IMG/VR virus record: IMGVR_UViG_3300031853_000029
Span: 6,657-70,656 of that record
DNA: 64,000 nt
From: a virus
Lineage: Duplodnaviria; Caudoviricetes
Strand: one strand, 5' to 3'
Part shown: piece by piece, positions 25,970 through 64,000 of the stretch
Layout: every line of letters begins with the position of its first letter
How positions within the stretch are numbered: the stretch's first letter is position 1
The notes under the pieces: model-generated
What the model was told of the DNA's origin: nothing
Databases searched by the model: none
The model's input: the letters and a program-made list of their open reading frames with translations, nothing else
Position numbers and translations under genes: made by a program

Positions 25970-25980
25970 AGGTGATATGA

Positions 25981-26205: not shown

Positions 26206-26226
26206 TCGGCCCTTTTCTTTTTTATT

Positions 26227-27729: not shown

Positions 27730-27738
27730 CGATGATCT

Positions 27739-27764
27739 CGCGAAAAAAGCATCCCTCTTAATGG
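27739..27764 (+). promoter_or_regulatory. 26-bp repeated motif, copy 10
   Basis: CGCGAAAAAAGCATCCCTCTTAATGG. Confidence 0.75.
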
Positions 27765-27796
27765 AAATACAAACGAATAAAAGGAGGTTGCTAACT

Positions 27797-28078: not shown

Positions 28079-28156
28079 GATTCCAAAAAGCGGAGACGCG
28101 GCAAATGCTGCTCTCTGCTTTCTTTTTTTCAAAAATGTCACATCCGGTTACTAATT

Positions 28157-28182
28157 CGCCGAAATTACCATCATCTTTATGG
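28157..28182 (+). promoter_or_regulatory. 26-bp repeated motif, copy 11
   Basis: CGCCGAAATTACCATCATCTTTATGG. Confidence 0.75.
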
Positions 28183-28212
28183 AGAGACTCTATATATTTT
28201 AAAGGAGTGAGG

Positions 28213-28350: not shown

Positions 28351-28378
28351 TGCTCGGTACCTTTATTTTTCAACGCTT

Positions 28379-28404
28379 CGCGTAAATTACCGGCCTCTTT
28401 ATGG
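28379..28404 (+). promoter_or_regulatory. 26-bp repeated motif, copy 12
   Basis: CGCGTAAATTACCGGCCTCTTTATGG. Confidence 0.75.
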
Positions 28405-28446
28405 GAAGGTACGGAAAGTACCTCATAACGAAAGGAGACTGGAAAA

Positions 28447-28623
28447 ATGGAATTTAAATTCAAGTTTGACAATTTGGACGAGCTGAATGCGTGGTTCGAC
28501 TTCTGCTGCACGCGTTGCGCAATGTGCAATCGCGAATACGGCAAAGTGGACCCCTGCTCGACCTGCAAGGCAAACAAGGTTTATGAAACCAGAAGAAAGG
28601 AAATCGAAGAAGGAGGCAAGTAA
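28447..28623 (+). CDS. Small Cys-rich protein (58 aa, not in ORF track)
   Basis: AAGGAG RBS; MEFKFKFDNL...CCTRCAMC...CSTC; followed by terminator. Confidence 0.6.
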   Translation: MEFKFKFDNLDELNAWFDFCCTRCAMCNREYGKVDPCSTCKANKVYETRRKEIEEGGK

Positions 28624-28668
28624 TTCCCAAAAGCGGATGCGCTGCAAATGCAGCCATCTGCTTTTCTT

Positions 28669-28694
28669 CGCGGAAAATACATCTCTCTTAATGG
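28669..28694 (+). promoter_or_regulatory. 26-bp repeated motif, copy 13
   Basis: CGCGGAAAATACATCTCTCTTAATGG. Confidence 0.75.
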
Positions 28695-28729
28695 CAAGGT
28701 TTATATCTACTGAAAAGGAGGAATGCATT

Positions 28730-28933: not shown

Positions 28934-28965
28934 AGACTCGGAGGGCTTCTTGTCCTCCCCTTTTT

Positions 28966-28991
28966 CGCGGAAATTACATGCCTCCTAATGG
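28966..28991 (+). promoter_or_regulatory. 26-bp repeated motif, copy 14
   Basis: CGCGGAAATTACATGCCTCCTAATGG. Confidence 0.75.
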
Positions 28992-29023
28992 TAGAGACTA
29001 TATTATTTTTAGGAGGTATCGGT

Positions 29024-31317: not shown

Positions 31318-31760
31318 CAGCGCAAAAACGATTCAGGCCCACGCCGTGCCCTGACTGCGGCACGAAGCCCAGCCTGTGGGAGGTCACTTTTTTCGGATAC
31401 AGGTCTCCGAAATTCAAGGTTGAATGCCCGGAATGCAAGAAAAAGACGAACTTTTATGATACGGCCCGCGGTGCCGCTTCCGCATGGGAGCGAGGGACCT
31501 ATATGATTCCCAGGGAGGACCGGGAGAATCTCGACAACGACAGCATTGCGGAGCTCATGGGAAAAATCATGGAAGAAATAAATAAGGATTACCAGCGGAT
31601 CGCTTCCGGGCACACCCCGTCCAGATGGGAAAGGACATATATTAAAGAACTTGAAGAATTCGTGATTGAAAATCCGTACATGCTCCCCTACGACCGGGAA
31701 TACGTCGTCGAAGAGATGAGGCGGCAAGCTGAAAAAACGCGAAAAAAGCAGGCTTCTTAA
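31314..31760 (+). CDS. Lar-like (restriction alleviation) zinc-ribbon protein
   Basis: PTPCPDCG...VECPEC...A..AW pattern in N-terminal half. Confidence 0.5.
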   Translation: MTAQKRFRPTPCPDCGTKPSLWEVTFFGYRSPKFKVECPECKKKTNFYDTARGAASAWERGTYMIPREDRENLDNDSIAELMGKIMEEINKDYQRIASGHTPSRWERTYIKELEEFVIENPYMLPYDREYVVEEMRRQAEKTRKKQAS

Positions 31761-31763
31761 TGG
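31738..31763 (+). promoter_or_regulatory. 26-bp repeated motif, copy 15
   Basis: CGCGAAAAAAGCAGGCTTCTTAATGG, overlapping the end of the upstream CDS. Confidence 0.7.
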
Positions 31764-31791
31764 ACGGATATAAAAAAGGAGGTATTCTACA

Positions 31792-32587: not shown

Positions 32588-32590
32588 ATT

Positions 32591-32616
32591 CGCGAAAAAA
32601 GCACGCCTCTTAGTGG
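32591..32616 (+). promoter_or_regulatory. 26-bp repeated motif, copy 16
   Basis: CGCGAAAAAAGCACGCCTCTTAGTGG. Confidence 0.7.
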
Positions 32617-32652
32617 GAGACCTAATATATCAAAACAAGGAGGATTCTCAGC

Positions 32653-32982
32653 ATGGGAGAGAACGGAACGAAGAAGGTAACTGGTATTCCTGAGAACGAA
32701 ACCCTGCTTCAGAAAGCGAAGCGGAAGGCCATGACGGCCGTGAACTGGGGCAAAACCCACTGGAAGGGGCTCGCGATCGGCGCGGTTGCCATCGGCGGAG
32801 GAGCATACATGCTCAGCCGGCGGGGCAGCAATGACGATGGAGAGACTGTTCCAAGCGGATATGCCCTCGGGGACGGAGAGACCGCCCGCGAGGCGATTAA
32901 CAGGGTATTCGACTCGGAAACCGGCGACGGATCCGACATCGGACCCGATGACGATGAACCCGACGAAGTTGATGAATATTGA
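32653..32982 (+). CDS. Membrane-anchored protein with acidic tail
   Basis: GLAIGAVAIGGGAYML glycine-zipper TM; AAGGAGG RBS. Confidence 0.65.
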   Translation: MGENGTKKVTGIPENETLLQKAKRKAMTAVNWGKTHWKGLAIGAVAIGGGAYMLSRRGSNDDGETVPSGYALGDGETAREAINRVFDSETGDGSDIGPDDDEPDEVDEY

Positions 32983-33053
32983 TGACCCGACAAGCGGAGA
33001 CGCTGTGTAAGCAGCTCTCTGCTTTTCTTTTCGACCGGGGAGGAGCGCAGAAT

Positions 33054-40138: not shown

Positions 40139-40260
40139 ACAATGGCAGGAATAACATTTCTATTGTCGGGCTGACAAAGAACGTAGATAATCTGAGTACA
40201 GGCCGTATTGGTGTCCATTGAAAGAAATTCACGATGATCATGAAGGCGGTTAAAAAAATC

Positions 40261-40286
40261 CGCGAAAAAATCACCTCTCGTTATGG
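40261..40286 (+). promoter_or_regulatory. 26-bp repeated motif, copy 17
   Basis: CGCGAAAAAATCACCTCTCGTTATGG. Confidence 0.7.
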
Positions 40287-40299
40287 AGGTGATCTACAG

Positions 40300-44458: not shown

Positions 44459-44496
44459 TCTGAAAAAAAAAATCCCACGGCGTGACAAATTATATT

Positions 44497-44522
44497 CGCG
44501 AAAAAAGCAGTGTTGTTTATGG
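44497..44522 (+). promoter_or_regulatory. 26-bp repeated motif, copy 18
   Basis: CGCGAAAAAAGCAGTGTTGTTTATGG. Confidence 0.7.
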
Positions 44523-44559
44523 AGATGGTAAATGCGAAACAACCATCTCTTTATTTTTT
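44522..44559 (+). terminator. Leader terminator / attenuator directly after motif
   Basis: GAGATGGT...ACCATCTC then TTTATTTTTT. Confidence 0.65.
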
Positions 44560-46817: not shown

Positions 46818-49800
46818 GTGAGCTTTTTCTCTGTACTTAGCAGGGAAGTGAAGAAGGGCGTCTATGAAGTTTATCCTGATTTCGACGTAGATCGGCCCAC
46901 CGATTTAATGACCAGAGGACGACACTTCTATGCGATGTGGGATGCAAATCTCGGCATGTGGACGCAGGACGTTTTCGATGTCGTGCAGACTGTTGACAAG
47001 GCTGTGCGTCAGAAAGCCGACGAACTGCAGGCCGCGCTTCCGTCAGCAACCGTTAAGATGAAGCTGATGCGGAATTTCCAGAGCAAAGTCTGGAGCGAGT
47101 TCTCCAATTATATTAACAAGCTTCCCGACCATTTCGTTCCTCTGGACAGCAAGCTGACCTTCGCCAACACACCGCTCGGGAAGAAGTCCGATTATATTTC
47201 CAAGAAACTCCCCTACTCTCTTGAGGAAGGCGACTACAGTGCGTGGGACGAGCTGATGGCCAAATTATATTCTCCGACAGAACGGCAGAAGATCGAATGG
47301 GCTATCGGCAGTGTCATTGCCGGAGAGGCAAAGAAGATCCAGAAGTTCATCGTGCTGTACGGCGAAGGCGGCAAGGGAAAAGGCACTGTGATCGGAATCC
47401 TTGACAAGCTCTTTCAGGGTTATACGACCGCGTTCAATGCAAAGGCACTGACGTCCAACTCCAACCAGTTTGCGACAGAAGCGTTCAAGGGAAATCCGCT
47501 CGTGGCCTTTCAGCATGATGGCGACCTTTCCAAAATTGAAGATAACACCCAGCTGAACAGCATAGTTTCGCACGAACCGATGGTGATCAACGCTAAGTAT
47601 GAATCACCATACACGGCCAAGCCGATCTGCATGCTGTTTCTCGGAACCAACAGCCCGGTCCGGATTACCGATGCGAAGAGCGGAATTATTCGACGGCTGA
47701 TCGACGCGGAACCAACAGGAGACACCTTCGATGGAGTCAAGTATGAAGTGCTGATGGACCGGATCGGCATGCAGCTCGGAGCGATCGCTTTCCACTGCCT
47801 ATCCGTTTATCGGAAGCTCGGAAAGCACTTCTATGATCAGTACAGGTCGCTGAAGATGATGTACAAGACTGATCTATTCTTCAACTTCGTGGAGGAAAGC
47901 TACACGATCTTCAAGGAACAGGATTCGACGACGCTGAAGGCCGCCTACGCCATGTACAAGGAATACTGCGAGGAGAACGGCAGCACTTCCAGCACGATGA
48001 TGCGGATCAAGTTCCGGGAAGAGTTGAAGAACTACTTCAGGGAATTCTATCCGATAACACGTGTCGACGGCAAACAGGTGCGCAGCTACTTCAAAGGTTT
48101 CCGGTCCGAAAAGATCGACGATGGAACTGAGGCTGAGCGGGCCGAGAAAGCCCAGAAGGAAGCGGTTCCAAATTGGCTGGTGCTGGACCAGACGGAAAGC
48201 CTGCTGGATGAGGTGCTGAAGGACTGCCCGGCGCAGTATGCCAGGGAGGATAACGAAGCGCCGTATGTCTCCTGGGACAAATGCACCAAGACGCTGAAGG
48301 ATCTGGATACCAGACGGACACACTACGTCAATATTCCGGAAAGCATGAAGCTGATCCACTTCGATTTTGATCTGAAGGATGAGAACGGAAACAAAAGCGC
48401 GGAAAGGAATATTGAGGCAGCCAACAAGCTTCCGCCGACCTATGCAGAGTATTCAAAAGGCGGAGCAGGAATCCACACAACCTATTATTACGATGGAGAT
48501 CAGAGCAAACTGGCCCTGGTTTATGAGCCGGGAATCGAAATCAAGGTAAGCACCGGAGGCAACAGTCTCAGACGTAAGCTCAGCCTGTGCAACAATCTGC
48601 CGATCGCTCACATCTCCAGCGGCCTGCCATTAAAGGAGGAGAAAGTGATCGACTTTACCACGATTGAAGATGAGAAGCATCTGATTGCTCTGATTGAAAA
48701 GAATCTTAATAAGAAGATTGTGCCTTCCACACATCAGAGCGTTGGGCTGATCAAGAACGATCTGGATACCTTCTATAAGAGCGGAAAGCATTACGATGTT
48801 CGAAGCTATAAGAAGAAGGTGATGCAGTTTGCGGCGAACAGCACCAACCACAGCCCGGAATGTTTGAAGATGGTAACTTCAATGAAATGGCACAGCGACG
48901 ACGTGACCGACCCGAAGGAGGTCGGAGAAGAGGATGAAATCGTGAACGATGAACGGTTAGCATTCTTTGACGTGGAAGTCTTCCCTAACCTCTTCCTGAT
49001 TAACTGGAAGTTCGCCGGAGAACCTGGATGCAAACGGATGATCAACCCGACACCACAGGATCTTGAGGAGTTTATTCATCTGAAGCTGGTTGGGTTTAAC
49101 TGCAGGCGGTACGACAACCATATCGTTTATGCCCGGTATCTGGGGAAGGCCAACCAGGAACTGTATGACCTTTCGCAGCGGATTATCAACGGCGATCCAG
49201 ACGCGTTCTTCGGTAAGGCCTATGACCTGTCCTACACGGATGTGTATGACTTCTGCTCCAAAAAGCAGAGCCTGAAGAAATGGGAGATCGAGCTGGATAT
49301 TCATCACCAGGAGCTGGGCCTGCCCTGGGATCAGCCGGTGGATGAAAGCCTGTGGGGGAAGGTGGCAGAGTATTGCGACAACGATGTAATCGCAACGGAA
49401 GCCGTTTTCAATGCCAGGCAGGATGACTGGAAGGCTCGGAAGATTCTGGCAAGGCTGGCCGGTCTCAACGTAAACGCAACTACCAACCAGCTGACTCAGA
49501 AAATTATATTTGGCTGGGAGAAGAAGCCTCAGGGTGCCTTCAATTATCGCTTTATGGGCGAAATGGAGGATTACGAGACCTACAGCATGCCCTGGGAGGA
49601 TGACAAGGAGTTCACCTTATTCGGACCCGACGGCAAGCCCGTGTTCCCCGGATACACCTTCGATAACGGCAAGAGCATGTACCGCGGTGAAGAGGTCGGA
49701 GAAGGCGGATACGTTTATGCAGAGCCAGGCATGTACTGGAATGTGGCGCTGCTGGACATCGCAAGCATGCACCCAAGCAGCATTGTGGCGGAAGACCTGT

Positions 49801-50738
49801 TTGGCCCCGAGTACACCAGGCGGTTCCATGATATTCTCGACGCCCGTCTGCTGATCAAGCACCGGGAATGGGATAAGGCGCGGAAGATCCTGGACGGAAA
49901 GCTGGCGCCATTCCTGGAGGGTATGGAGAACCTCAGCGAGCAGGAACAGAAGGCGGAGGCCGATAATCTGAGCAGCGCGCTGAAGATCGCGATCAACTCG
50001 GTTTATGGCCTGACCAGTGCGAGGTTTGTGAATCCGTTCCGGGATGTGCGGAACAAGGACAACATCGTCGCCAAGCGCGGAGCTCTATTCATGATCAACC
50101 TGAAACACCTTGTACAGGCTAAGGGATTCACGGTGGCCCATATCAAGACAGATTCTATCAAAATACCGAATGCCACGCCGGAGATTATTCAGTATGTGAT
50201 GGATTACGGAAAGTTGTACGGCTATACCTTCGAGCATGAGAGCACCTACGACCGGATGTGTCTGGTGAATAACGCCGTGTATGTGGCCCACGTGGAAAGC
50301 GGAAAGCATGCAGGAGAGTGGAACACCACGGGAGCCCAGTTCGCAGAACCTTATGTGAAGAAAACTCTGTTCACAAGAGAGCCGATCACATTCAGGGATC
50401 TGTGTCAGACGAAGACCGTGACCACCAACATGTACCTGGATACGAATGAGGACATGCCTGAGGGGCATCACAACTATCATTTCGTCGGAAAAGCAGGAAG
50501 CTTCTGCCCGATCAAGCCTGGCCGCGGAGGCGGATGGTTGGTTCGCCAAAAGGACGACAAGTATGACGCCGTAACCGGAACCAAGGATCAGCGGTGGCTT
50601 GAGGCCGAGACGGTGAAGAATCTCGGAATCGAAGACGCGATTGACCGCAGCTATTTTGACCGCCTGGTCGAAGAGGCCGTTCATGATATCTCGCAGTACG
50701 GTGATATCGAAGTATTTAGAACATTGGAGGGAAGCTGA
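46818..50738 (+). CDS. Fused SF3 helicase - AEP-like primase - 3'-5' exonuclease - family B DNA polymerase
   Basis: Walker A GEGGKGKGT; FDFDLKD and SKGGAGIH (primase); FFDVEV and GFN..RYD (exo); DIASMHPS, KIAINSVYG, IKTDS (PolB A/B/C). Confidence 0.88.
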   Translation: MSFFSVLSREVKKGVYEVYPDFDVDRPTDLMTRGRHFYAMWDANLGMWTQDVFDVVQTVDKAVRQKADELQAALPSATVKMKLMRNFQSKVWSEFSNYINKLPDHFVPLDSKLTFANTPLGKKSDYISKKLPYSLEEGDYSAWDELMAKLYSPTERQKIEWAIGSVIAGEAKKIQKFIVLYGEGGKGKGTVIGILDKLFQGYTTAFNAKALTSNSNQFATEAFKGNPLVAFQHDGDLSKIEDNTQLNSIVSHEPMVINAKYESPYTAKPICMLFLGTNSPVRITDAKSGIIRRLIDAEPTGDTFDGVKYEVLMDRIGMQLGAIAFHCLSVYRKLGKHFYDQYRSLKMMYKTDLFFNFVEESYTIFKEQDSTTLKAAYAMYKEYCEENGSTSSTMMRIKFREELKNYFREFYPITRVDGKQVRSYFKGFRSEKIDDGTEAERAEKAQKEAVPNWLVLDQTESLLDEVLKDCPAQYAREDNEAPYVSWDKCTKTLKDLDTRRTHYVNIPESMKLIHFDFDLKDENGNKSAERNIEAANKLPPTYAEYSKGGAGIHTTYYYDGDQSKLALVYEPGIEIKVSTGGNSLRRKLSLCNNLPIAHISSGLPLKEEKVIDFTTIEDEKHLIALIEKNLNKKIVPSTHQSVGLIKNDLDTFYKSGKHYDVRSYKKKVMQFAANSTNHSPECLKMVTSMKWHSDDVTDPKEVGEEDEIVNDERLAFFDVEVFPNLFLINWKFAGEPGCKRMINPTPQDLEEFIHLKLVGFNCRRYDNHIVYARYLGKANQELYDLSQRIINGDPDAFFGKAYDLSYTDVYDFCSKKQSLKKWEIELDIHHQELGLPWDQPVDESLWGKVAEYCDNDVIATEAVFNARQDDWKARKILARLAGLNVNATTNQLTQKIIFGWEKKPQGAFNYRFMGEMEDYETYSMPWEDDKEFTLFGPDGKPVFPGYTFDNGKSMYRGEEVGEGGYVYAEPGMYWNVALLDIASMHPSSIVAEDLFGPEYTRRFHDILDARLLIKHREWDKARKILDGKLAPFLEGMENLSEQEQKAEADNLSSALKIAINSVYGLTSARFVNPFRDVRNKDNIVAKRGALFMINLKHLVQAKGFTVAHIKTDSIKIPNATPEIIQYVMDYGKLYGYTFEHESTYDRMCLVNNAVYVAHVESGKHAGEWNTTGAQFAEPYVKKTLFTREPITFRDLCQTKTVTTNMYLDTNEDMPEGHHNYHFVGKAGSFCPIKPGRGGGWLVRQKDDKYDAVTGTKDQRWLEAETVKNLGIEDAIDRSYFDRLVEEAVHDISQYGDIEVFRTLEGS

Positions 50739-51220: not shown

Positions 51221-51730
51221 ATGGAAAAGACGATTACAATTCGTGACGCTCAGATTGCCCCTTACAAGTTCCGTAATTTTGAAGGTCGGGAAACCGAGTA
51301 CAACAGAGCCGGCGCCCGCAACTTTGTTATATTCCTAGACAAAGCCCTGGCTCAGCAGCTTGAGGCGGACGGTGCGCCGGTTATCTGGAAACCCGATCGC
51401 TACAATGAGGGCGAACTTCGTGCTCAGATGAAGGTCCATGTGAAGTATTACAATCGCAAGGGCGAGAAGATGACCCCTCCGAAGGTCGTGCTGATCACCA
51501 GAAAGAAGCAGACCAAGCTGACGGAAGATACAATCAGTCTGCTGGATACGGCGGACATCGCCAAATGCGATCTGATCCTCAGCCAGTATCCGAATCCAGG
51601 TTCCATGGGTCCGGAGAATTCTGTAAGTCTGAAGACCATGTATGTTACTTTGGCCGAAGACGAGTTTGCCGAGGAGTACGAAACGGACGACGTGCCTTTT
51701 GCGGCTGGGTCTGAAAGCGAGCCTTGGTAA
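51221..51730 (+). CDS. Probable single-stranded DNA-binding protein
   Basis: FRNFEG...RNF, beta-rich OB-like body, acidic C-tail ending DDVPF...W; in replication module. Confidence 0.65.
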   Translation: MEKTITIRDAQIAPYKFRNFEGRETEYNRAGARNFVIFLDKALAQQLEADGAPVIWKPDRYNEGELRAQMKVHVKYYNRKGEKMTPPKVVLITRKKQTKLTEDTISLLDTADIAKCDLILSQYPNPGSMGPENSVSLKTMYVTLAEDEFAEEYETDDVPFAAGSESEPW

Positions 51731-52917
51731 AACTATACCCCCACCAAAGGGATGCAGTCTGGCGGATGCACAACGGCTGCATCCTGGTGGGCGGGGTCGG
51801 CAGCGGAAAGAGCATTACGTCGCTGGCCTATTATTATATTCGTGAGTGCGGCGGATGCCTCGAGCCCGAAAAGCCAATGACGCACCCAAAGGATCTCTAC
51901 GTCATTACGACAGCCAGAAAGCGGGATACGCTTGAATGGAAGGCGGAGATGCTTCCCTTCTGCCTGCAAGAGTACGACATTCAGGTAACGATCGACAGTT
52001 GGAACAACGTACACAAGTATGTGGATGTTGAGAATGCTTTCTTTATATTTGACGAGCAGCGTGTCGTCGGGACTGGAACGTGGGCAAAGAGCTTTGTTAA
52101 AATCGCAAAGCGCAACCGATGGATCCTGCTCTCGGCCACGCCCGGCGACACCTGGTCTGATTATATTCCAGTCTTTGTGGCAAATGGCTACTATAGGAAT
52201 CCAACTGACTTCCGCAACCAGCATGTGATTTATGCCCGGTTCAGCAAATACCCGAAGATTGACAAATACGTGGCCGTAAGAAAACTGCAGAAGATTCGGG
52301 ACAAGGTGCTCGTCAATATGGATTACAGTCGGAAGACCTCGTGCGTGTATGAGTACATCCAGCCGATGTATGACCGGGATCAGTATTTATTTGTAAACAG
52401 GAATCGGTGGAACCCATATAAAAATGAGCCGCTTGTAAATGCCGGCGAGCTTTGCCTCACGCTTCGGCACATTGTCAACAGCGATCCGAGTCGATTGGCG
52501 AAGCTGACCGATCTGATGATGAAGCATCCGAGAGCAATTATATTTTACAACTTCGACTATGAGCTCGAGATGCTCCGAGGATGGGCGAAGAAGAACATGC
52601 TCACTTATGGAGAGTACAACGGCCATCATCACGATCCGATTCCAGAAGGAGAAAGCTGGGCTTACCTCGTTCAGTATACTGCCGGCGCAGAAGGATGGAA
52701 TTGCACGCTGACGGATACAGTGATATTTTACAGTCTGAACTACAGTTACAAAACAATGGTGCAGGCGGCCGGAAGAATCGATCGGCTGAACACGCCTTAC
52801 CAGACGCTATACTATTATCGCTTTGTTTCCTCTGCCCCGATCGATCTGGCGATCCGGCGGGCTCTAAAGGATAAGAAGAATTTTAATGAGTCGGCTTTTG
52901 TCGGGAGTTTGACGTGA
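51724..52917 (+). CDS. SF2 (SNF2-like) helicase
   Basis: LYPHQ, GGVGSGKS, FIFDE, LLSATP, AEGWN, QAAGRIDR. Confidence 0.85.
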   Translation: MVKLYPHQRDAVWRMHNGCILVGGVGSGKSITSLAYYYIRECGGCLEPEKPMTHPKDLYVITTARKRDTLEWKAEMLPFCLQEYDIQVTIDSWNNVHKYVDVENAFFIFDEQRVVGTGTWAKSFVKIAKRNRWILLSATPGDTWSDYIPVFVANGYYRNPTDFRNQHVIYARFSKYPKIDKYVAVRKLQKIRDKVLVNMDYSRKTSCVYEYIQPMYDRDQYLFVNRNRWNPYKNEPLVNAGELCLTLRHIVNSDPSRLAKLTDLMMKHPRAIIFYNFDYELEMLRGWAKKNMLTYGEYNGHHHDPIPEGESWAYLVQYTAGAEGWNCTLTDTVIFYSLNYSYKTMVQAAGRIDRLNTPYQTLYYYRFVSSAPIDLAIRRALKDKKNFNESAFVGSLT

Positions 52918-52948
52918 TTCTTACAGGAAAAGTGTGACAGTTTTTTTT

Positions 52949-52974
52949 CGCGAAGTTTACAGCGTTCTTTATGG
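52949..52974 (+). promoter_or_regulatory. 26-bp repeated motif, copy 19
   Basis: CGCGAAGTTTACAGCGTTCTTTATGG. Confidence 0.7.
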
Positions 52975-53070
52975 AGAGAGGTTTGACCAATTTGACGGCA
53001 GCGATAAAAAGCGGTCACGCATGGCTCAGTAAGAGTCGGAAGCGTTTTGGACACACCTCTTCTATTTTTT
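52973..53070 (+). ncRNA. Structured leader / attenuator-like RNA
   Basis: AGAGG 52977-81 / CCTCT 53056-60 and CCAA/TTGG closing stems, internal hairpins, then U-tract. Confidence 0.5.
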
Positions 53071-53090
53071 CGCATGAACGGGGAACTTCT

Positions 53091-53384
53091 ATGAAAAAAG
53101 AAAACGCCTTTCAGGGAAAGCTGATCAAAGAGCTCCATGAACGGTTTCCGGGCTGCGTTGTCCTGAAGAATGACCCTAATTATATTCAGGGCATCCCGGA
53201 CCTTCTTGTTCTATATAGATCCCGCTGGGCCGCTCTTGAATGCAAAAGGAGCGAGAATGAAAGCCGTCGACCAAATCAGGAATATTACGTGGACAAGCTC
53301 AATGGCATGAGCTTCTCTGCATTTATATTTCCCGAAAACAGAGAGGAGGTTTTACATGATCTGGAAGAAGCATTCCGAGCTTGA
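53091..53384 (+). CDS. VRR-NUC / Holliday-junction-resolvase-like PD-(D/E)xK nuclease
   Basis: ENAFQ..LI...GIPDL...ALECK...PNQ. Confidence 0.75.
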   Translation: MKKENAFQGKLIKELHERFPGCVVLKNDPNYIQGIPDLLVLYRSRWAALECKRSENESRRPNQEYYVDKLNGMSFSAFIFPENREEVLHDLEEAFRA

Positions 53385-53931
53385 CGGCGCTCATGCTTTT
53401 TTAAGCCCCAGCAAATACCACTGGTTAAACTATACGGATGAAAAGCTTCGTCTAACCTATCAACGCCATCTTGCTACGCTTCGCGGAACTGAACTGCATG
53501 CTTACGCAGAGCAGGCTATTCGGTTAAAGAGAAGGCAGCCCCGGAACTCAGACTCAGTCAACATGTACATCAACGATGCGATCGGATATGGTATGCAGCC
53601 CGAGCAGCCTTTGGTGTACTCCGGGAACTGCTTCGGCACGGCGGACGCCATTGCCTTCGACGAGAAGCACAAGATGCTCCGGATCCACGACCTGAAAACC
53701 GGAGAGATTCCTGCACACATGGAGCAGTTGAAGATCTATGCGGCACTCTTCTTTCTTGAGTATGCCGCCGATCTCGGTTTGGAAAGTATTCACGATATGA
53801 ACATCGAGCTCCGAATCTACCAAAGCGGAGAGGTGCTGGTTGAAAACCCGCCTTCGGAAGAGATCGAGATCATCATCGACAAAATTATTGACAGCGATGA
53901 AACTATTCAGGATGAGCGGCGAAAAGGATAG
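53356..53931 (+). CDS. DUF2800 / Cas4-like PD-(D/E)xK exonuclease
   Basis: HAFLSPSK, GTELH, FGTADAI, IHDLKTG, QLKIYA. Confidence 0.75.
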   Translation: MIWKKHSELDGAHAFLSPSKYHWLNYTDEKLRLTYQRHLATLRGTELHAYAEQAIRLKRRQPRNSDSVNMYINDAIGYGMQPEQPLVYSGNCFGTADAIAFDEKHKMLRIHDLKTGEIPAHMEQLKIYAALFFLEYAADLGLESIHDMNIELRIYQSGEVLVENPPSEEIEIIIDKIIDSDETIQDERRKG

Positions 53932-53966: not shown

Positions 53967-56885
53967 ATGGAACCTTTGATTCCTTACACCGAAGAAGCGT
54001 TCCGTGCTTTATTCGAAAGCGATACACCGGAGAACGCTTTGGCTCATGTTGGTAAACCACATGACGGTCCCATTCCGCATTCCGGGCGATACGCCTGGGG
54101 AAGCGGTGAATCTCCATATCAGCGGAGTCTGGACTTTATGACACACTACAATGCACTGAGGCGTTCCGGAATGTCGGATAAGCAGATTGCCGAAGCCGAT
54201 GGGCTGACTTTGAATCAGCTCAGAGCTCGCAAATCAAATTCCGGCGCTGATGTGCGGCACCACAATGTGGCAGTTGCCACAAAACTTAAGGCCGCTGGCT
54301 GGTCAACCACGGCTATTGGTAGGAAATTCGGCGTGAACGAGAGCACCGTCAGAGGCTGGCTGGACGAAGATGTTCAGAAGCGGAAAGACGCGTCTCTCGG
54401 CACAGCCAACATGCTTTCCGACCAGGTTAAACAATTCAAATACGTAGAAGTCGGGAAAGGCGTCGAACAGCATCTTGGCGTCAGCAGAACGAAAATGGAT
54501 TACGCCTTGGAAATGCTGAAACAGTCCGGTCAGTATGAAGTGAAAGATATTCGCATTGACCAGGGCGCCAAAGGAAAGAAGACCCGAATTCAGGTTCTCG
54601 TCCCTGTTGGAACGGAACGTAAGGAAATCTATGATCACAAAGATAAGATAGCTATTCCCAACCTTGGTGTTTACACAGAGGACGGTGGCGCAACTTGGAA
54701 CAAGGTAGAAGCCCCGGTTCCGATCGACATGTCTAGAGTGTTCATAAATTACACCAGTCCCGACATGTCTAGGGGAGGGGTACTAAAGGATGGCGTGATC
54801 GAAATCCGGCCTGGCGTTCCGGACCTGAGTCTTGGAAATGCCATGTATGCTCAGGTACGCATTCGTGTTGGAGACGACAAGTACATGAAAGGCATGGCAG
54901 TCTATTCTGACAAAGTGCCAAAAGGGTATGACATTATCTACAACACAAACAAGACCGAAGCCCAGGCAGCCAAAGTATTCAAACCGATGGCCAAGGATAA
55001 GGACGGGAACATCGATCTCATCAACCCATTTGGTGCAACTATCAGAACGGATGATTATAGCGACAATCCGGATCTGATCAAGTGTCAGCGGCACTATATT
55101 GACCCCAAAACGGGCGAACGGAAGTTAAGCGCGCTCAATGTAGTGAACGAAGAAGGCAACTGGAAGGAATGGGGTCGAACCCTGTCTGCCCAGATGCTGA
55201 GTAAGCAGGAGCCTTATCTCGCTGAACGGCAGCTTAAGGTAATGTACAACCGGAAGTTGGACGAGTTTAACGAGATTCTGGGTCTGACGAATCCGACTAT
55301 TCGTGCTCACCTTTTGGAAGGCTTTGCGGATGATTGCGACTCCAGCGCCGTGCACCTGAAAGCCGCGGCTATTCCCGGTTCGGCTTCGCATGTCATTATC
55401 CCAATCCCTTCTATGAAGGAGAACGAGATCTACGCGCCCAACTATGAGAATGGTTCCCGGGTTGCCCTGATTCGTTATCCTCATGGCGGAAGGTTCGAGA
55501 TCGCTGATCTTACCGTCAATAATCTGAACAAGGAAGCCCAGAAGATTCTTGGTGCTGCTCCCGATGCTGTAGGTATTCATCACTCGGTTGCGGCCAAGCT
55601 GTCAGGCGCCGACTTTGATGGGGACACTGTTACGGTCATTCCGAACAATTCGGGCGACATCAAGAGTATGGCCGCCTTGAAAGGGCTGAAGGACTACGAG
55701 CCTAAGGTCCTCTATGCGAAGTCCGACGATCAGATTAAGACCGGAAAACCAAAGAATAAGAAGGACATGTATGATGCTAACGGCAAGCAGCTCTATGATA
55801 ACTTCGACACGCAGCGTCAGATGGGAGAGATTTCGAATCTGATTACAGACATGACCATCAAGGGCGCTCCGACCGAAGACATTTGCAAAGCCGTTCGGCA
55901 TTCCATGACTGTTATTGATGCCGAGAAGCACAACCTTGACTGGAAACGATCTTACGAGGAGAATCAAATCAGAGAACTGAAGAGCAGGTATCAGGGAGTC
56001 AATCCTAATGGCAGCCTGAAGGGCGCTTCGACTCTGATCTCTGCCTCGAAATCCAAGGTCTACCTTCCCGATCGGAAGGCTGGTGTCTGGGCCCATGACG
56101 AGAACGGTAAAGGGTATCGGCAGCTGTATGATCCGGAGACTGGCGCAAAGCTTTATTCAAATACGGGCAAGATGAGCTCGAAAAAAGTCTACGACAAGAA
56201 CGGCGACTACGTTTGGAAGCAGTTTCCGGTCGAGATCACTACTACAAAGATGGCCGAGACTCAAGACGCCTATTCGTTGTCTTCGGGAACAAGAATGGAA
56301 GGCATTTATGCCAACCATGCCAACCGTCTGAAGGCTCTTGCTAATCGGGCCAGAAAAGAAATTATGTCAACGGAAGACGTTCCTTACAGTCCGGCTGCAG
56401 CAAAACGCTACTCCGCTGAGGTAGATTCTTTGAAAGCCAAGAAGAACGAAGCTGACAAGCACAAGCCTTTGGAGCGTCGTGCCGGTGCAATCGCTACCAG
56501 TCTATTCCAAATGAAAGCTGCCGAAGATCCAAGCTTATGGGAAGACCATGATCGGGCCAAAAAGGAAAGGGCCCGTCTGATGGACTATGCACGGAAACAG
56601 ATGGGTGAAAAGCGTCCTCGAATTGCGTTTACAGATAAGGAATACGAAGCGATTCAGGCTGGCGCCGTTCGTAAGACGTTCTTGAAGGACTTGATTAAGG
56701 AATGCGACCAGGACGCCCTGAAACAGCGTGCCATGCCTCGCCAGTGGAAGGCGATGTCTCCTGCTAAACTTTCCAGAGCTCGTCAGATGCTTAAGAATGG
56801 CGCCACAAACATCGAAGTCGCTCAGGCCCTTGGTGTCTCGACTTCGACGCTTTACGACGCTCTTAACGGCAAAACCGGCTCGTAA
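53967..56885 (+). CDS. Putative single-subunit double-psi-beta-barrel RNA polymerase (YonO/RdRP-related) with terminal HTH domains
   Basis: GADFDGD at 55605-55625; LIRYPHGG; YAQVR...KGMAV; HTHs at both termini. Confidence 0.8.
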   Translation: MEPLIPYTEEAFRALFESDTPENALAHVGKPHDGPIPHSGRYAWGSGESPYQRSLDFMTHYNALRRSGMSDKQIAEADGLTLNQLRARKSNSGADVRHHNVAVATKLKAAGWSTTAIGRKFGVNESTVRGWLDEDVQKRKDASLGTANMLSDQVKQFKYVEVGKGVEQHLGVSRTKMDYALEMLKQSGQYEVKDIRIDQGAKGKKTRIQVLVPVGTERKEIYDHKDKIAIPNLGVYTEDGGATWNKVEAPVPIDMSRVFINYTSPDMSRGGVLKDGVIEIRPGVPDLSLGNAMYAQVRIRVGDDKYMKGMAVYSDKVPKGYDIIYNTNKTEAQAAKVFKPMAKDKDGNIDLINPFGATIRTDDYSDNPDLIKCQRHYIDPKTGERKLSALNVVNEEGNWKEWGRTLSAQMLSKQEPYLAERQLKVMYNRKLDEFNEILGLTNPTIRAHLLEGFADDCDSSAVHLKAAAIPGSASHVIIPIPSMKENEIYAPNYENGSRVALIRYPHGGRFEIADLTVNNLNKEAQKILGAAPDAVGIHHSVAAKLSGADFDGDTVTVIPNNSGDIKSMAALKGLKDYEPKVLYAKSDDQIKTGKPKNKKDMYDANGKQLYDNFDTQRQMGEISNLITDMTIKGAPTEDICKAVRHSMTVIDAEKHNLDWKRSYEENQIRELKSRYQGVNPNGSLKGASTLISASKSKVYLPDRKAGVWAHDENGKGYRQLYDPETGAKLYSNTGKMSSKKVYDKNGDYVWKQFPVEITTTKMAETQDAYSLSSGTRMEGIYANHANRLKALANRARKEIMSTEDVPYSPAAAKRYSAEVDSLKAKKNEADKHKPLERRAGAIATSLFQMKAAEDPSLWEDHDRAKKERARLMDYARKQMGEKRPRIAFTDKEYEAIQAGAVRKTFLKDLIKECDQDALKQRAMPRQWKAMSPAKLSRARQMLKNGATNIEVAQALGVSTSTLYDALNGKTGS

Positions 56886-56925: not shown

Positions 56926-57156
56926 ATGGCCATCGCACTTACCTTTGAAGGCAACCCCTTCAGCCCAGTCACGGACTTTCGTGCCTGGTACGCCTTCGAT
57001 CCGGTTAAAGCGGCGAAATGTTGCTCGATGTACGCTGCATTGACGCCTGAAAGCTCTGAATCGACCCCTTCCGAGCAAGATGAAGCTCGAGAAGCGGCGA
57101 TTGACGAGATTTGTCGTGAGAATGTGACCGGATACTTTAAAAAATACACCGAATAA
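56926..57156 (+). CDS. Conserved small acidic phage protein
   Basis: AAGGAG RBS; LT...NPFSP..DF..W..FD. Confidence 0.65.
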   Translation: MAIALTFEGNPFSPVTDFRAWYAFDPVKAAKCCSMYAALTPESSESTPSEQDEAREAAIDEICRENVTGYFKKYTE

Positions 57157-57199: not shown

Positions 57200-57290
57200 T
57201 GGCACCCGGGGGAGGGGGTCCGCGAAAAACACCCCCTCCCTGCATCGCCGGCCTCCTCGGAAAAGCCCCGGAGGGATATTTTGGTGGTGC
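57200..57290. other. GC-rich inverted-repeat region, candidate cos/packaging site
   Basis: GGGAGGGGGT...ACCCCCTCCC; noncoding gap upstream of TerS-HNH-TerL. Confidence 0.4.
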
Positions 57291-57311
57291 AAATTATATT
57301 TTTTCTGGGTG

Positions 57312-57340
57312 TTGACGGTGGATTTTAGCGGTGTTAGACT
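57312..57340 (+). promoter_or_regulatory. Host sigmaA/sigma70-type promoter
   Basis: TTGACG-17 bp-TAGACT with extended -10 TG. Confidence 0.55.
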
Positions 57341-57430
57341 ATTATTATATTTTCGGCCGCATCTTTTCCTTAAAAGTGGCCTGAAAGTACACAGAAACGG
57401 TGCCTATAATTGATCTGGGAGGTTACGAAC

Positions 57431-60289: not shown

Positions 60290-62032
60290 ATCCTATCTAA
60301 CACAGCTACTCCAAAATATTACGGGATGTTCCGAGACCAGGTTCTTCGGAACGAAATTCCTGTATGCGAAAATATCAGTCTGTATATGAACCTGATCGAC
60401 GAGCGAATCGCCAATCCGATGTTTTATTACGACGACGATCCTGTCGAGCGGTACATATCTTTCTGCGAGAACGAACTGACGCTCACTGACGGCGCGGACA
60501 TGAAGCTTCTTGACTCCTTTAAGCTCTGGGCAGAGGATTTGCTCGGGTGGTATTATTTCGAGGAGCGTAGCGTTTACGAGCCGGGTCAAAATGGTGAGGT
60601 CGGAGGGTACAGACAGAGGCTGGTGAAGCGCCGGCTTATCAACAAACAGTATTTAATCGTAGGACGTGGCGCCGCAAAGAGTCTGTATTCGACAACGATA
60701 CAGGCTTATTTTCTTGTTTGCGACAAATCCACGACCTATCAGATTGCCACGGCGCCAACCATGCGTCAGGCAGACGAAATTCTGGCCCCTATCCGGACGG
60801 CTATTGCCCGGAGCAGAGGGCCGGTTTTCAAATTCCTTACAGCAGGTAATCTGCAGAACACAACCGGCAATCGGCTGAACCGTCCGAAGCTCAGTTCAAC
60901 CAAGAAGGGCATAGAGAACTTCCTGAGTAACAGCAGCCTTCAGGTTCACCCGATGACAGTTGATAAGCTGCAGACCTGGCGATGCAAGGTTGTAAGCATT
61001 GATGAATGGCTTTCCGGAGAAACCCGGGAAGATGTTGTCAATGCTGTGGAACAGTCGGCCGCAAAGGCAGGCGACTATATGATTCTGGCAACCAGCTCCG
61101 AGGGTACGGTTCGAAACGGCGTCGGTGATACGATGAAGATCGAGCTGATGAAAATTCTTCGGGGCGAATACCGGAATCCGCACGTATCAATCTGGTATTA
61201 CAGATTGGACGACAAGAAGGAAATCGCGGACCCGTATCTGTGGCGAAAGGCTAATCCCAATCTTGGTTATACAGTGACCTACGAAACCTACCAGCGGGAA
61301 GTGGAAAGAGCCGAAAACAATCCGAGCTCCGCAAACGACACGCTAGCAAAGAGATTCGGTATCCCGATGGAAGGCAGCACGTTCTTCTTTACGTATGAGC
61401 AAACGTTGTGTCATCCGAAAACCGATTTCTGGGGGATGCCTTGTGCTATGGGTGCGGACTTAAGTCAGGGCGATGACTTCTGTGCGTTTACGTTTTTGTT
61501 CCCGATTGGAGACGGTCGATTTGGCGTTAAGACCAGATGCTATATCACGAGCAGGACTCTTTTAAATCTTCCGGCCGCAACCAGGAATAAATACGACGAT
61601 TTCATTAACGAGACGAGTCTGGCTGTACTTGACGGAACCGTTCTGACCATTGACGATGTATACGATGATCTGGAACGATTTATCGAACGCAGTCAGTACG
61701 ACGTACGGGCGTTCGGGTTTGACCCTTATAACGCCAAAGAATTTGTTGAAAGATGGACGAGGGATTACGGGCCTTACGCTGTGGAGAAAGTAATTCAGGG
61801 CGCAAAGACAGAAAGCGTGCCGCTCGGAGAACTCCGAAATCTTGCCGAAGAGCGATCTCTTATATTTGATCAGGGAATTATGCAATATTGCATGGGCAAC
61901 TGTATCGCGATCGAGGACACAAACGGAAACCGAAAACTGGCAAAGAAAAGGTATGAGCATAAGATCGACGCAGTTGCAGCTATGATGGATGCGTATATTG
62001 CATATAAGCTAAACAGCGAAAACTTTGATTGA
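60290..62032 (+). CDS. terL: Terminase large subunit
   Basis: Walker A GRGAAKS, Walker B SIDEW, nuclease GADLSQGDDF and KIDAVAAMMDA; first in-frame ATG is 60326, probable true start ATC 60290. Confidence 0.92.
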   Translation: MLSNTATPKYYGMFRDQVLRNEIPVCENISLYMNLIDERIANPMFYYDDDPVERYISFCENELTLTDGADMKLLDSFKLWAEDLLGWYYFEERSVYEPGQNGEVGGYRQRLVKRRLINKQYLIVGRGAAKSLYSTTIQAYFLVCDKSTTYQIATAPTMRQADEILAPIRTAIARSRGPVFKFLTAGNLQNTTGNRLNRPKLSSTKKGIENFLSNSSLQVHPMTVDKLQTWRCKVVSIDEWLSGETREDVVNAVEQSAAKAGDYMILATSSEGTVRNGVGDTMKIELMKILRGEYRNPHVSIWYYRLDDKKEIADPYLWRKANPNLGYTVTYETYQREVERAENNPSSANDTLAKRFGIPMEGSTFFFTYEQTLCHPKTDFWGMPCAMGADLSQGDDFCAFTFLFPIGDGRFGVKTRCYITSRTLLNLPAATRNKYDDFINETSLAVLDGTVLTIDDVYDDLERFIERSQYDVRAFGFDPYNAKEFVERWTRDYGPYAVEKVIQGAKTESVPLGELRNLAEERSLIFDQGIMQYCMGNCIAIEDTNGNRKLAKKRYEHKIDAVAAMMDAYIAYKLNSENFD

Positions 62033-62102: not shown

Positions 62103-64000
62103 ATGAGTCAGTTCATAATCAAAGGAATTGATTACACAGATGAAAGCTTGCAGCACGGGCTTGGCAAAGGCAGCGGTAGAGGTCGGCCGGTTGGATCCAA
62201 AAATGGTCAGATTATGCCCGGTGCGGCTTATATGAAAGATTACAAAATCGTTGGGCAGAAGGCTGTTGGCGAACCCGCTGTGCCCGGTGCAACGAATACC
62301 CGCCGTCGGACACAGAGTACACTAAACCGGAGGCAGGCGAGTTCGTCCATCAGGAACCGGTTTTCTGCGCCTAGCAGGACCGGCGGTAGCAGACAGACCA
62401 CGACCGCCGTTCGACCGGCACCTCGGGCGAATGTCGTGACGAATCGGTATACAACACCGACCAAGACAAGCAGTGAACAGACGACGGCCACCGTTCAGCA
62501 GCCGCAGGCAAACACAATTACAAATAGGTTTACAGCTCCAAATAAGGCGGACAGTAATGGTCGGGTATCTACGCCTGCTGAAAATGTTTCTAAAGGTAAG
62601 CGGGCCGTGGAGGCTCTTATGGAAAAGGGCAATGGTCAAAGTCAGACCCAGAAGACGGCCAGTAACGACAACAGCAGAGAGGCCGCGTCTCAGACGAGCC
62701 AGCCCAAACGCAGCAGGGACATGAGCACGGCAGAACTTCGTGCTCTTGACCCCGTCGGTGACTGGCCGTGGAGTGAACGAAGGGTAAAGGCCGCCGGTGG
62801 TCTTGAGGCACGCGAAGGACGTCAGATTGTTTACGATAATCCGACGCTGAGCGACGACTATAAGAAGCAGATCGCCAAAAGATATGGCGACAGTAACGGA
62901 CGGTCATATCCGAAATATCTTGAAGAAGGCGACAATAATTCCACCCAGACAACTAGCAATGAACCCGCGGCTAGCGCCGAGCAGAATAACCGTGAGGCAA
63001 CGAATAGCGTTCTAAATCGTGATGCGAGCACGATGGACAGTTCTCAGACTGCTCCAAGCCAGACTTCCGCACAGAATAACGGCAACGCGATAAACAATGC
63101 ATTGCAGCGGGATGCCCGGCTGATGCCCCGTTCTCAGACTGCGCCGAGTCAGGTTCCAGAAACTTCTGCACAGGATAATGGTAATGTTGCTAATAACAAT
63201 GCGACAGCTGCTCAGGCACAAACCACGGCAGCTCAGGAAACCCCGGAGCAGAAGAGTTTTTGGGATAATGTCGGCGGGTGGTTTTCTCAGGCCGCTAAGG
63301 ATATCGGCGATACTGCTACCGGCGCTTGGAACACTGTCAGCGGCGCAGCCGGAGATGCTGCCAAATGGGTTGGCGATAGACTCGGTCCTGCCGGAGAATG
63401 GGCACAGACGGCGTATAACGATGTCAGCGATTGGGTTGGCGACCGCGCTAAAGATTTGAATAACTGGTGGAATGGTCAGGATGCTTATACGCAGGTTGCT
63501 GATCCGAATAATCCCGGGGTTACCCGCGACATTCAGGGGCATCAGGCAGGCGCACGAGAGCAGATTGGTAACTGGCTTGGATCTGCCGGGCAGTGGATCG
63601 GCGATCGCGCTGCTGACGTAGGCAACGCTGCGAATACGGCCGGTCAGTGGATCGGCGATCGCGCTGCTGACGTTGGTAATGCTGCGAATGCTGCTGGTCA
63701 GTGGATTGGAAATACTACGGGCAACGCTGCGAATACGGCCGGTCAGTGGATCGGCGATCGCGCTGCTGACGTTGGTAATGCTGCGAATGCTGCTGGTCAG
63801 TGGATTGGAAATACTACGGGCAATGCAGGGCAGACGGTTAGTAACGCCGTTAACGATGCCGGTCAGTGGATTGGTAATACAGCGAATAATGCAGGACGTG
63901 ATTTGAACAACTGGTGGAACGGCACCGATCAGTCGGTTCTGGGAATTCCCACTGGTCACACTCCCGGGGCTAGGGAAAATATTGGCAACTGGTTTAATAA
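62103..64000 (+). CDS. Large low-complexity/repeat protein of head module, truncated by window end (not in ORF track)
   Basis: ATG 62103 after AGAGG; reading frame spot-checked as open to 64000; starts MSQFIIKGIDYTDESLQHG; T/S/Q/N-rich; 18-aa QWIGDRAADVGNAANTAG repeats. Confidence 0.75.
   Translation, partial: MSQFIIKGIDYTDESLQHGLGKGSGRGRPVGSKNGQIMPGAAYMKDYKIVGQKAVGEPAVPGATNTRRRTQSTLNRRQASSSIRNRFSAPSRTGGSRQTTTAVRPAPRANVVTNRYTTPTKTSSEQTTATVQQPQANTITNRFTAPNKADSNGRVSTPAENVSKGKRAVEALMEKGNGQSQTQKTASNDNSREAASQTSQPKRSRDMSTAELRALDPVGDWPWSERRVKAAGGLEAREGRQIVYDNPTLSDDYKKQIAKRYGDSNGRSYPKYLEEGDNNSTQTTSNEPAASAEQNNREATNSVLNRDASTMDSSQTAPSQTSAQNNGNAINNALQRDARLMPRSQTAPSQVPETSAQDNGNVANNNATAAQAQTTAAQETPEQKSFWDNVGGWFSQAAKDIGDTATGAWNTVSGAAGDAAKWVGDRLGPAGEWAQTAYNDVSDWVGDRAKDLNNWWNGQDAYTQVADPNNPGVTRDIQGHQAGAREQIGNWLGSAGQWIGDRAADVGNAANTAGQWIGDRAADVGNAANAAGQWIGNTTGNAANTAGQWIGDRAADVGNAANAAGQWIGNTTGNAGQTVSNAVNDAGQWIGNTANNAGRDLNNWWNGTDQSVLGIPTGHTPGARENIGNWFN

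Follow-up and report, generated by a model that had tools for sequence, protein, structure and literature searches.

We analyzed a stretch of 64,000 nucleotides (hereafter the window) from IMG/VR virus record IMGVR_UViG_3300031853_000029, a member of the Caudoviricetes. The window covers bases 6657-70656 of this complete 70,656-bp record, whose ends are 112-bp direct terminal repeats, and the subject of this report is one of its genes (53967-56885, + strand), a single ATG open reading frame (ORF) of 972 amino acids belonging to PHROG 4291, the phage 1706 ORF75 family. The protein is a new, diverged member of this known family; it has the fold of a two-barrel RNA polymerase (RNAP), eight active-site candidates that are invariant among its homologs, four fused DNA-binding modules, and a conserved place among its neighboring genes. 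We consider it probable that the protein is an active DNA-dependent RNAP used for phage transcription. The same genome carries a 30-nucleotide (nt) two-block element ahead of its early and middle transcription units, and the proposal that the polymerase reads this element is, in our judgment, evenly balanced.

The PHROG 4291 profile, labeled "RNA-dependent RNA polymerase", matched residues 23-968 with an E-value of 0 and 1066 bits (profile positions 10-907 of 909). Searches with tblastn located full-length homologs of about 45% identity in 250 phage records, including phages of Arthrobacter (95 records), Gordonia (55), Streptomyces (54) and Lactococcus (13) as well as gut siphoviruses and Faecalibacterium phages; most of these records label the protein a "helix-turn-helix DNA-binding domain protein" and some an "RNA-dependent RNA polymerase". 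The query is at most 45% identical to the protein of any named phage and 86-89% identical to those of metagenomic contigs. More than 5,400 family proteins were counted in 90% clusters and 793 family clusters at 50% identity (E < 1e-30), and 308 matches occur in species-representative bacterial genomes, with prophage carriers among common gut Clostridia that include [Ruminococcus] torques, Hungatella hathewayi, Blautia faecis and Enterocloster lavalensis.

In 2010, Ruprich-Robert and Thuriaux (PMC2919709) had already listed a "1706" family with the YonO-like proteins. Koert et al. (2021; bioRxiv 10.1101/842583) described the protein as a signature of an actinophage supercluster together with Lactococcus and Faecalibacterium phages, reported helix-turn-helix (HTH) domains at both ends, an HHpred match to PF05183 and the DxDGD motif, and stated that it "could potentially have RNA polymerase activity". 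The family and its architecture, an RNA-dependent RNA polymerase (RdRP)-like core between HTHs, are already in print, and the protein studied here shares with the 1706 ORF75 family the HTH-core-HTH layout, DxDGD, RxP, and a gene position after an exonuclease and before an ORF of about 80 amino acids; it is a diverged copy, with no difference in kind. Neither a third, winged-helix module nor a promoter-like element appears in those portions of the published descriptions of the family that were accessible. One related contig (L207; G012:C1:15494-17875, - strand) holds a polymerase homolog (profile positions 6-787) within a 2465-amino-acid open frame, which may mean that the polymerase is fused there to a large protein encoded downstream, an arrangement that would recall the tape-measure-fused RNAP of phage P23-45.

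Polymerase core and fused DNA-binding modules

The preliminary description, made from the sequence, had proposed a single-subunit polymerase related to YonO and the RdRPs, with built-in HTHs and a pair of double-psi beta-barrels, and this reading is supported by the fold, the motifs and the Pfam HTH matches. An AlphaFold model computed with 38 homologs as input (predicted local distance difference test, pLDDT, 80.7; predicted template modeling score 0.68) shows a two-barrel core, and a Foldseek search of the PDB with this model returned, at E <= 1e-3, two-barrel RNA polymerases and no other proteins. The best matches were QDE-1 (6e-8) and P74-26 gp62 (4.5e-7), then P23-45 gp64 and RDR2, with P23-45 gp96, crAss gp66 and many bacterial beta-prime chains next in the list; the matches thereby include the QDE-1 and crAss-like enzymes with which comparison had been suggested, in addition to RDR2 and the non-virion RNAP of a Thermus phage. 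Alignment by VIA-align gave Z-scores of 13.8 for QDE-1 (root-mean-square deviation 4.8 A over 381 residues, model 251-800 on QDE-1 683-1186, spanning both barrels), 13.7 for RDR2 and 12.2 for P74-26 gp62, and about 10 for the largest (Rpb1-type) subunits of Pol I, II and III on model residues 463-690. The two barrels are encoded as follows:

54714-55166, + strand: beta-subunit-like double-psi beta-barrel with D275, Q296-x-R298 and K308-G309 (strands at residues 258-395)
55374-55646, + strand: beta-prime-like double-psi beta-barrel with R503-x-P505 and the Mg-binding loop D549-F-D551-G-D553

All of the motifs first noticed in the sequence lie within these barrels. YAQVR spans residues 294-298 (nt 54846-54860) and KGMAV residues 308-312 (ending at nt 54902). 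LIRYPHGG (which holds R503-Y-P505) spans 501-508 and GADFDGD 547-553, its DFDGD falling precisely on nt 55611-55625. Ten residues (D275, Q296, R298, K308, G309, R503, P505, D549, D551 and D553) are invariant in the 38 homologs and equally so in 67 diverged representatives of 50%-identity clusters, whose identity to the query is 41-48% (mean column identity 33%); the aspartate triad, on whose conservation the polymerase reading had been staked, is among them. In QDE-1, the eight residues invariant across two-barrel RNAPs are D709, R738, K743, R962, P964, D1007, D1009 and D1011 (PMC2919709), for which our candidate counterparts are D275, R298, K308, R503, P505, D549, D551 and D553. The spacing from R503 to D549 is 46 compared with 45 in QDE-1, and D275, R298 and K308 were assigned to D709, R738 and K743 by compatible spacing and aligned range, not by residue-level superposition. 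In both the 38- and the 67-sequence sets, the core of about 550 residues is the best-conserved part of the protein.

Four DNA-binding modules flank this core:

54153-54236, + strand: HTH module 1, LuxR/GerE-like or sigma region-4-like (residues ~63-90; second Pfam HTH_23 stretch)
54273-54368, + strand: HTH module 2 (residues ~103-134; Pfam HTH_23, HTH_28 and CENP-B_N at 106-134)
54387-54623, + strand: winged helix-turn-helix (wHTH; residues ~141-219; helices and a beta-hairpin wing in both models)
56757-56876, + strand: C-terminal HTH (residues ~931-970; Pfam HTH_3, HTH_7 and HTH_Tnp_1; phrog_664 at 927-969)

Three HTH-like strings had been picked out beforehand, two of them N-terminal; they lie at residues 68-80, 112-131 and 945-966, in agreement with the Pfam HTHs, and both N-terminal segments stand, although their count was incomplete and the winged helix has to be added as a third module. 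Pfam HTH_23 matched two stretches within residues 63-134 (E 1.3e-10, best at 106-133), and HTHs at both ends of the core were recognized by Pfam in 38/38 family members. Folded alone, residues 50-250 reached a pLDDT of 85. The region of residues ~50-114 resembled the LuxR/GerE-type regulator EsrB (Z 7.5 over 64 residues) and sigma-4 of SigL (Z 6.0), and the winged helix resembled the eWH of TFIIIC (Z 7.8), the WH of TFIIE (Z 6.9) and GntR/MarR proteins (Z about 6), all of these being below 8, a range in which a match is possibly generic. A Foldseek search with the N-terminal sub-model returned nothing at E <= 1e-3. The Sigma70_r4_2 profile reached an E-value of 0.055 in the query and was matched by 36 of the 38 relatives (best 2.8e-11), so "sigma-like" fairly describes the fold of one HTH, a corresponding function being no more than a candidate.

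Within the modules, R129 (module 2) and A952 (C-terminal HTH) are at least 90% conserved in both sequence sets, and in the 38-sequence alignment S113, G122 and G945 are at least 90% conserved while G956 and S958 are invariant. The conservation of R129 and A952, together with the invariance of G956 and S958, is as expected for a conserved DNA target. It is plausible that the HTHs read promoters in cis in a sigma-like manner, a suggestion founded on the co-occurring promoter-like element described below.

A relation to YonO had also been proposed, and the relation itself held in the form of a local profile match, whereas membership in the YonO family proper did not; the query is placed in a sister family. 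The YonO sequence taken from the SPbeta record falls into phrog_8308 (E=0), which the query matches over residues 482-629 only (E 3.9e-7), and homology between the two is detectable only around the beta-prime-like barrel. Both are siphovirus-encoded single-chain two-barrel RNAPs that share RxPH, DxDGD and (I/M)GxxSN(L/N)IT, and both genes lie just upstream of late genes (terminase/portal), so that the layout of yonO and its late operon is mirrored here. YonO differs from the query in its PHROG, in having no HTH module recorded in Pfam, and in a Cys4 cluster at its C-terminus. YonO has been assayed: it is processive and DNA-dependent, and the late genes of SPbeta are transcribed by it (PMC5467207, Forrest et al. 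2017); the query family is known from sequence and model.

Over both barrels, the best structural matches (381-445 aligned residues) are QDE-1 of Neurospora and RDR2 of plants, eukaryotic silencing enzymes that act on RNA or single-stranded DNA; they have the same eight active-site residues (candidates in the query), but are only 10-17% identical to it, lack HTH modules, and have other N- and C-terminal domains. The Thermus phage and crAss-like enzymes (P23-45 gp64 and P74-26 gp62, both non-virion; gp96, virion; phi14:2 gp66, crAss-like; PDB 8f72, 8f5m, 8h2m and 6vr4) are minimal two-barrel RNAPs, phage-encoded like the query, that read phage-specific promoters without a sigma factor. They show no detectable sequence similarity to the query beyond the DFDGD loop (E 0.67) and have no fused HTH or wHTH. 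Two of them, gp66 and the tape-measure-fused gp96, are virion-delivered, a route also hinted at for the query.

A two-block promoter-like element

A repeat search followed by an iterated weight matrix identified a 30-nt element with the consensus of a T-rich stretch and TTCGCG.AAAATACA-N4-TCTTAATGGAG. The weight matrix finds 19 copies on the + strand and 0 on the - strand, every one of them 5′ of a gene, and many follow a hairpin and T run directly, with a ribosome-binding site immediately 3′ of the element or overlapped by it. The early region of small genes (23.9-29 kb) holds 14 copies, and the rest are at 31.7, 32.6, 40.2, 44.5 and 52.9 kb. A copy stands at the head of 18-19 early and middle transcription units, the polymerase operon among them; the structural half of the genome is almost devoid of the element. 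Its blocks are about 14 nt apart and have no -35 partner at sigma-70 spacing, which makes it unlike a sigma-70 promoter in geometry. Copies and their weight-matrix scores include:

23896-23925, + strand: score 39.8
24270-24299, + strand: score 34.9
24653-24682, + strand: score 50.6
24815-24844, + strand: score 45.8, with ATTATATT in the upstream T-rich slot
25070-25099, + strand: score 46.2
25504-25533, + strand: score 50.3
25942-25971, + strand: score 50.5
26225-26254, + strand: score 51.6
27737-27766, + strand: score 36.5
28155-28184, + strand: score 42.4
28377-28406, + strand: score 36.1
28667-28696, + strand: score 49.1
28964-28993, + strand: score 42.1
31736-31765, + strand: score 28.0
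32589-32618, + strand: score 35.8
40259-40288, + strand: score 34.9
44495-44524, + strand: score 35.9, upstream of the DUF6353 and DNA polymerase-primase genes, with ATTATATT in the upstream slot
52947-52976, + strand: score 40.3, heading the endonuclease-exonuclease-RNAP operon

Repeated hairpin and T-run units (GGAGACG..GCAGCTCTCTGCTTTTCTT) occur immediately 5′ of many copies between 23814 and 33031 (for example at 25893-25942, 28078-28127, 28621-28670 and 32982-33031), which gives each small early gene the look of a terminator-promoter-ribosome-binding-site cassette.

The element extends to relatives. In L011, an 86%-identical relative, the copies at 44495 and 52947 have orthologs at 325 and 8964, respectively, and the latter copy also has one in L008 (9016). 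Faecalibacterium phage FP_oengus carries eight copies on the coding strand within 7 kb (8:0), Arthrobacter phage Arcadia has six core copies, also all on the coding strand (6:0), with CTATAAT as the downstream block, and an uncultured relative, G001, has six variant copies (TCGC-AAAAACTACA-N6-TAATGAAGGAG). The spelling of the element differs between lineages, as in CGCGAAAAATACA versus CGCAAAAACTACA. For the 20-base pattern CGCGAAAAATACA-N5-YTTNATGG, there were at least 115 exact matches in IMG/VR viral contigs with fewer than 1 expected. Of the first 15 listed contigs of at least 45 kb with this exact pattern, all but one (82% complete) carry a gene for a full-length polymerase homolog, including 8/8 of those at 90% completeness or more, and the element and the polymerase gene are on the same strand in 14/14. 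A hand-written two-block regular expression missed known copies and was discarded, and a scan of 80 RNAP loci (+/-10 kb) was uninformative, the element clustering 20-30 kb from the gene.

The 8-mer ATTATATT, found in the upstream slot of two copies listed above, is itself strand-biased, with 25 copies on the + strand and 0 on the - strand of the whole genome. The 23 copies in the window (3391-57351) compare with 2.0 +/- 1.3 in shuffled sequences, and the 19 copies inside ORFs with 3.8 +/- 1.7 under synonymous-codon shuffling, an excess of about 5-fold; within genes the word is read in each of the three frames, as [DN]-Y-I, I-I-F or L-Y-S. Copies are scarce in the structural half of the genome, and 35 of 42 copies of TTATATT lie in the non-structural half. 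We rejected ATTATATT as the promoter: a -35 partner is lacking, five distant relatives show no enrichment of the word, and its copies are retained at orthologous sites in L011 (9/15) no more often than words of equal composition (50%). In G001 its strand ratio is 15:1, mostly through GAT-TAT-ATT codons. Another word, TGGATATT (6:0 in L008), was likewise set aside as arising from codons. Two further features lie in the gap between the polymerase operon and the late (HNH-TerL) genes:

57293-57351, + strand: tandem ATTATATT words at 57293 and 57344, both kept in L011
57312-57340: sigma-70-like TTGACG-17-TAGACT with an upstream TG, between the tandem words, kept in L011

The latter may be a host-type late or read-through promoter.

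Genomic setting and the N-terminal motif

Nearly all genes of the genome are on the + strand, and the polymerase gene is the last of a replication module that runs from a DNA polymerase/primase to an exonuclease. The 70.7-kb genome encodes an integrase and looks temperate; a related-locus search with the polymerase protein alone found no close prophage. The surrounding features are:

21411-22427: integrase
46818-50738: DNA polymerase/primase, replication module
51221-51730: annealing/single-stranded DNA-binding protein, replication module
51724-52917: helicase, replication module
52971-53384: endonuclease, replication module
53356-53931: exonuclease, replication module
56926-57156, + strand: small conserved ORF of 76 amino acids, phrog_4303, in every case 3′ of the polymerase gene
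57208-57284, + strand: two GC-rich hairpins, with a T run after the second
60326-62032: terminase large subunit (TerL)

Downstream of the polymerase gene follow the 76-amino-acid ORF, the hairpins, a zinc-ribbon membrane protein, an HNH endonuclease, a connector, a basic 282-amino-acid protein and TerL. The hairpins (fold -45 kcal/mol) are not exceptional against shuffled sequences (z -1.45), their sequence is kept in L011, and they likely form a terminator at the end of the polymerase operon. The order exonuclease, polymerase, ORF of about 80 amino acids recurs in Arcadia, Moozy, Untouchable and FP_oengus, phages whose hosts are Arthrobacter, Streptomyces, Gordonia and Faecalibacterium, and in two metagenomic relatives, one of them L011; Lactococcus phage 1706 has the small ORF 3′ of the polymerase gene and no exonuclease annotated directly 5′. 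As in the 1706 ORF75 family, the gene here closes the replication module, stands between exonuclease and small ORF, and precedes the packaging genes. Elsewhere in the window, the tail region holds two very large + strand ORFs (48-6416, 2122 amino acids; 6443-11086, 1547 amino acids).

The polymerase opens with a motif ahead of the HTH modules:

54018-54125, + strand: disordered, conserved N-terminal motif (residues ~18-53, ..L-A-H-V-G..S-G-R-Y-A-W-G-S-G..P-Y-Q-R; pLDDT < 50)

In the 67 relatives G29, S39 and G40 of this motif are invariant, and H27, R41, Y42, G45, G47 and Q52 are at least 90% conserved. A similar block, DSLSHHGVPNQKWGVRNGPPYP, opens the basic 282-amino-acid head-module protein before TerL (P0388; 59414-60262), in which a [DE]-S-L-x-H-(x)-G block followed by KWGVR..PYP..QR echoes the polymerase N-terminus, and a weaker version opens the large ORF after TerL (62103-63998, continuing beyond the window end). 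The counterpart of this last ORF in L011 is a 960-amino-acid protein (18214-21096) situated between TerL and portal, and the ORF is accordingly not the portal gene. The motif is a candidate virion-loading tag, distantly DUF7211-like (P0388 itself matches Pfam DUF7211 weakly, at E 0.044; a literature search found no paper mentioning this domain), and the block found in the polymerase and in the head-module proteins on either side of TerL could serve all three as a signal for loading into the capsid. The depositors of GenBank EU081845 label 1706 orf75 a "structural protein", and those of GU580941 label ReqiPepy6 gp106 "similar to 1706_gp75, structural protein".

Virion RNAPs are known in N4, crAss-like phages and P23-45, and the polymerase would in the same way be loaded into the virion, through its disordered N-terminal motif, and enter the cell with the DNA. 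We offer this as a tentative proposal, somewhat on the doubtful side; such delivery would explain how an enzyme starts up whose operon lies behind its own candidate promoter.

Weighing the explanations

On the reading we prefer, the single-chain two-barrel enzyme would copy DNA and transcribe the phage's own genes, with DNA dependence probable by analogy with YonO. The template signal would be the two-block element ahead of early and middle units, and the fused HTH and wHTH modules would supply promoter binding, in which case a separate sigma factor is not needed. A more ambitious version, in which a self-sufficient, virion-delivered chain of about 110 kDa reads the 30-bp promoter with its own modules, without sigma or any host protein, and shares its capsid tag with head cargo, seems to us rather unlikely as a whole; were it true, enzyme and promoter would travel together and the same transcription system would work across bacterial phyla.

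Several observations weigh against parts of this reading. The Pfam RdRP profile PF05183 scored 20.8 bits at residues 540-661 (E 1.8e-4), below its gathering threshold of 23.8, as it likewise stays sub-threshold in 32 of the 38 family members where it matches, and sequence searches of the PDB with the protein and its profile returned HTH proteins and a marginal P23-45 gp96 (E 0.67) as the only polymerase. An hhalign comparison of the query family with an alignment of 20 YonO sequences covered 122 columns at a probability of 0.2, pairing RYPH with RSPH, DFDGD with DNDGD and MGxxSNLIT with IGExSNNIT; at that probability we set it aside as proof, together with a comparison to YonO alone that aligned an irrelevant stretch. 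To these may be added the assignment of three of the eight active-site candidates by spacing and the possibly generic Z-scores of the N-terminal modules. Sigma region 2, the domain that binds the -10 element and melts DNA, was matched neither by Pfam or NCBIfam profiles nor by fold, a negative that does not prove its absence, and literature searches found no experimental study of the PHROG 4291 or 1706 ORF75 family. For virion delivery, the similarity of the polymerase N-terminus to P0388 is weak (BLASTP E 0.04, within the genome), and "structural protein" is an annotation by the depositors. The co-occurrence of element and polymerase is confounded by shared ancestry. With the present models the element was not detected in the polymerase-bearing 1706, Moozy, G002, G004 and G005, and its exact core, allowing up to one mismatch, was absent from 4/5 complete RNAP-bearing contigs; G001 later showed a variant spelling, and given this drift the non-detections are not proof of absence.

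The downstream block, spelled TCTTAATGG here and CTATAAT in Arcadia, resembles TATAAT and could be read by a host sigma-A holoenzyme, which leads to a different assignment of roles: the polymerase would be real, but the element would be read by host RNAP through this block, with a phage factor, perhaps this protein's HTHs, binding the upstream CGCG.AAAATACA block as its operator or activator site, and the phage polymerase would use other promoters, for instance those of late genes as YonO does. The authors who described the motif in Gordonia cluster DJ took it for a sigma-70 -10 element (PMC9671010), the polymerase gene lies directly 5′ of the late operon as yonO does in SPbeta, the sigma-70-like TTGACG-17-TAGACT stands in the gap before the late genes, and the five polymerase-bearing relatives in which the element went undetected fit as well. 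Against host reading, an element of fixed geometry recurs in phages of Bacillota and Actinomycetota, whose promoters and G+C differ, its blocks at about 14 nt leave it without a -35 partner at sigma-70 spacing, and 14 of the 15 element-bearing contigs encode the polymerase; we regard host reading as unlikely, though to be taken seriously. The element is not a lysogeny operator, since lytic members carry it too.

Other roles for the protein find less room. Its gene closes the replication module in a conserved order, and the archaeal replicative polymerase PolD has a two-barrel core too, so the enzyme could instead make primer or origin-activating transcripts for the adjacent polymerase-primase, helicase and single-stranded DNA-binding module. 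We think this improbable: a primase domain is already fused to the phage DNA polymerase (phrog_864/1156 matches), YonO, the only assayed bacterial relative, is a transcriptase, and the candidate signals precede genes, next to ribosome-binding sites, with almost none in the structural half, a placement that fits transcription and not genome-wide priming. The label on PHROG 4291 and several RefSeq records suggests an RNA-dependent enzyme, copying for example phage or host RNAs, as would the best structural matches (QDE-1 and RDR2), the sub-threshold Pfam RdRP match, and the reported activity of QDE-1 on both DNA and RNA templates (PMC9508822). Yet the label was given by homology only, the genome is double-stranded DNA, YonO on the same branch is DNA-dependent, and four fused modules of double-stranded-DNA type (HTH, wHTH) point to DNA templates, leaving RNA dependence highly improbable. 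Finally, most of the 250 records call the protein an HTH DNA-binding protein, and only its HTHs exceed Pfam thresholds, as would suit a DNA-binding regulator built on a catalytically dead polymerase-like scaffold; the eight catalytic residues are, however, invariant in 67 relatives, a constraint unexpected for a dead enzyme, and the core is the best-conserved part of the protein, for which reasons we give this explanation hardly any credence.

Two-barrel RNAPs are the universal transcription enzymes, and minimal single-chain forms such as YonO, QDE-1 and the Thermus and crAss enzymes show what the ancestral core does alone. The PHROG 4291 family is by far the most abundant single-chain version, and most databases label it a regulator or an RNA-dependent polymerase. 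For the family, the present genome is mostly confirmatory, adding concrete candidate promoters, one of them before the polymerase's own operon, and a hint of virion delivery. If the HTHs do read the element, the two would form a compact polymerase/promoter pair independent of host phylum, which would bear on the evolution of promoter recognition and on phage annotation, and might provide an orthogonal expression tool.

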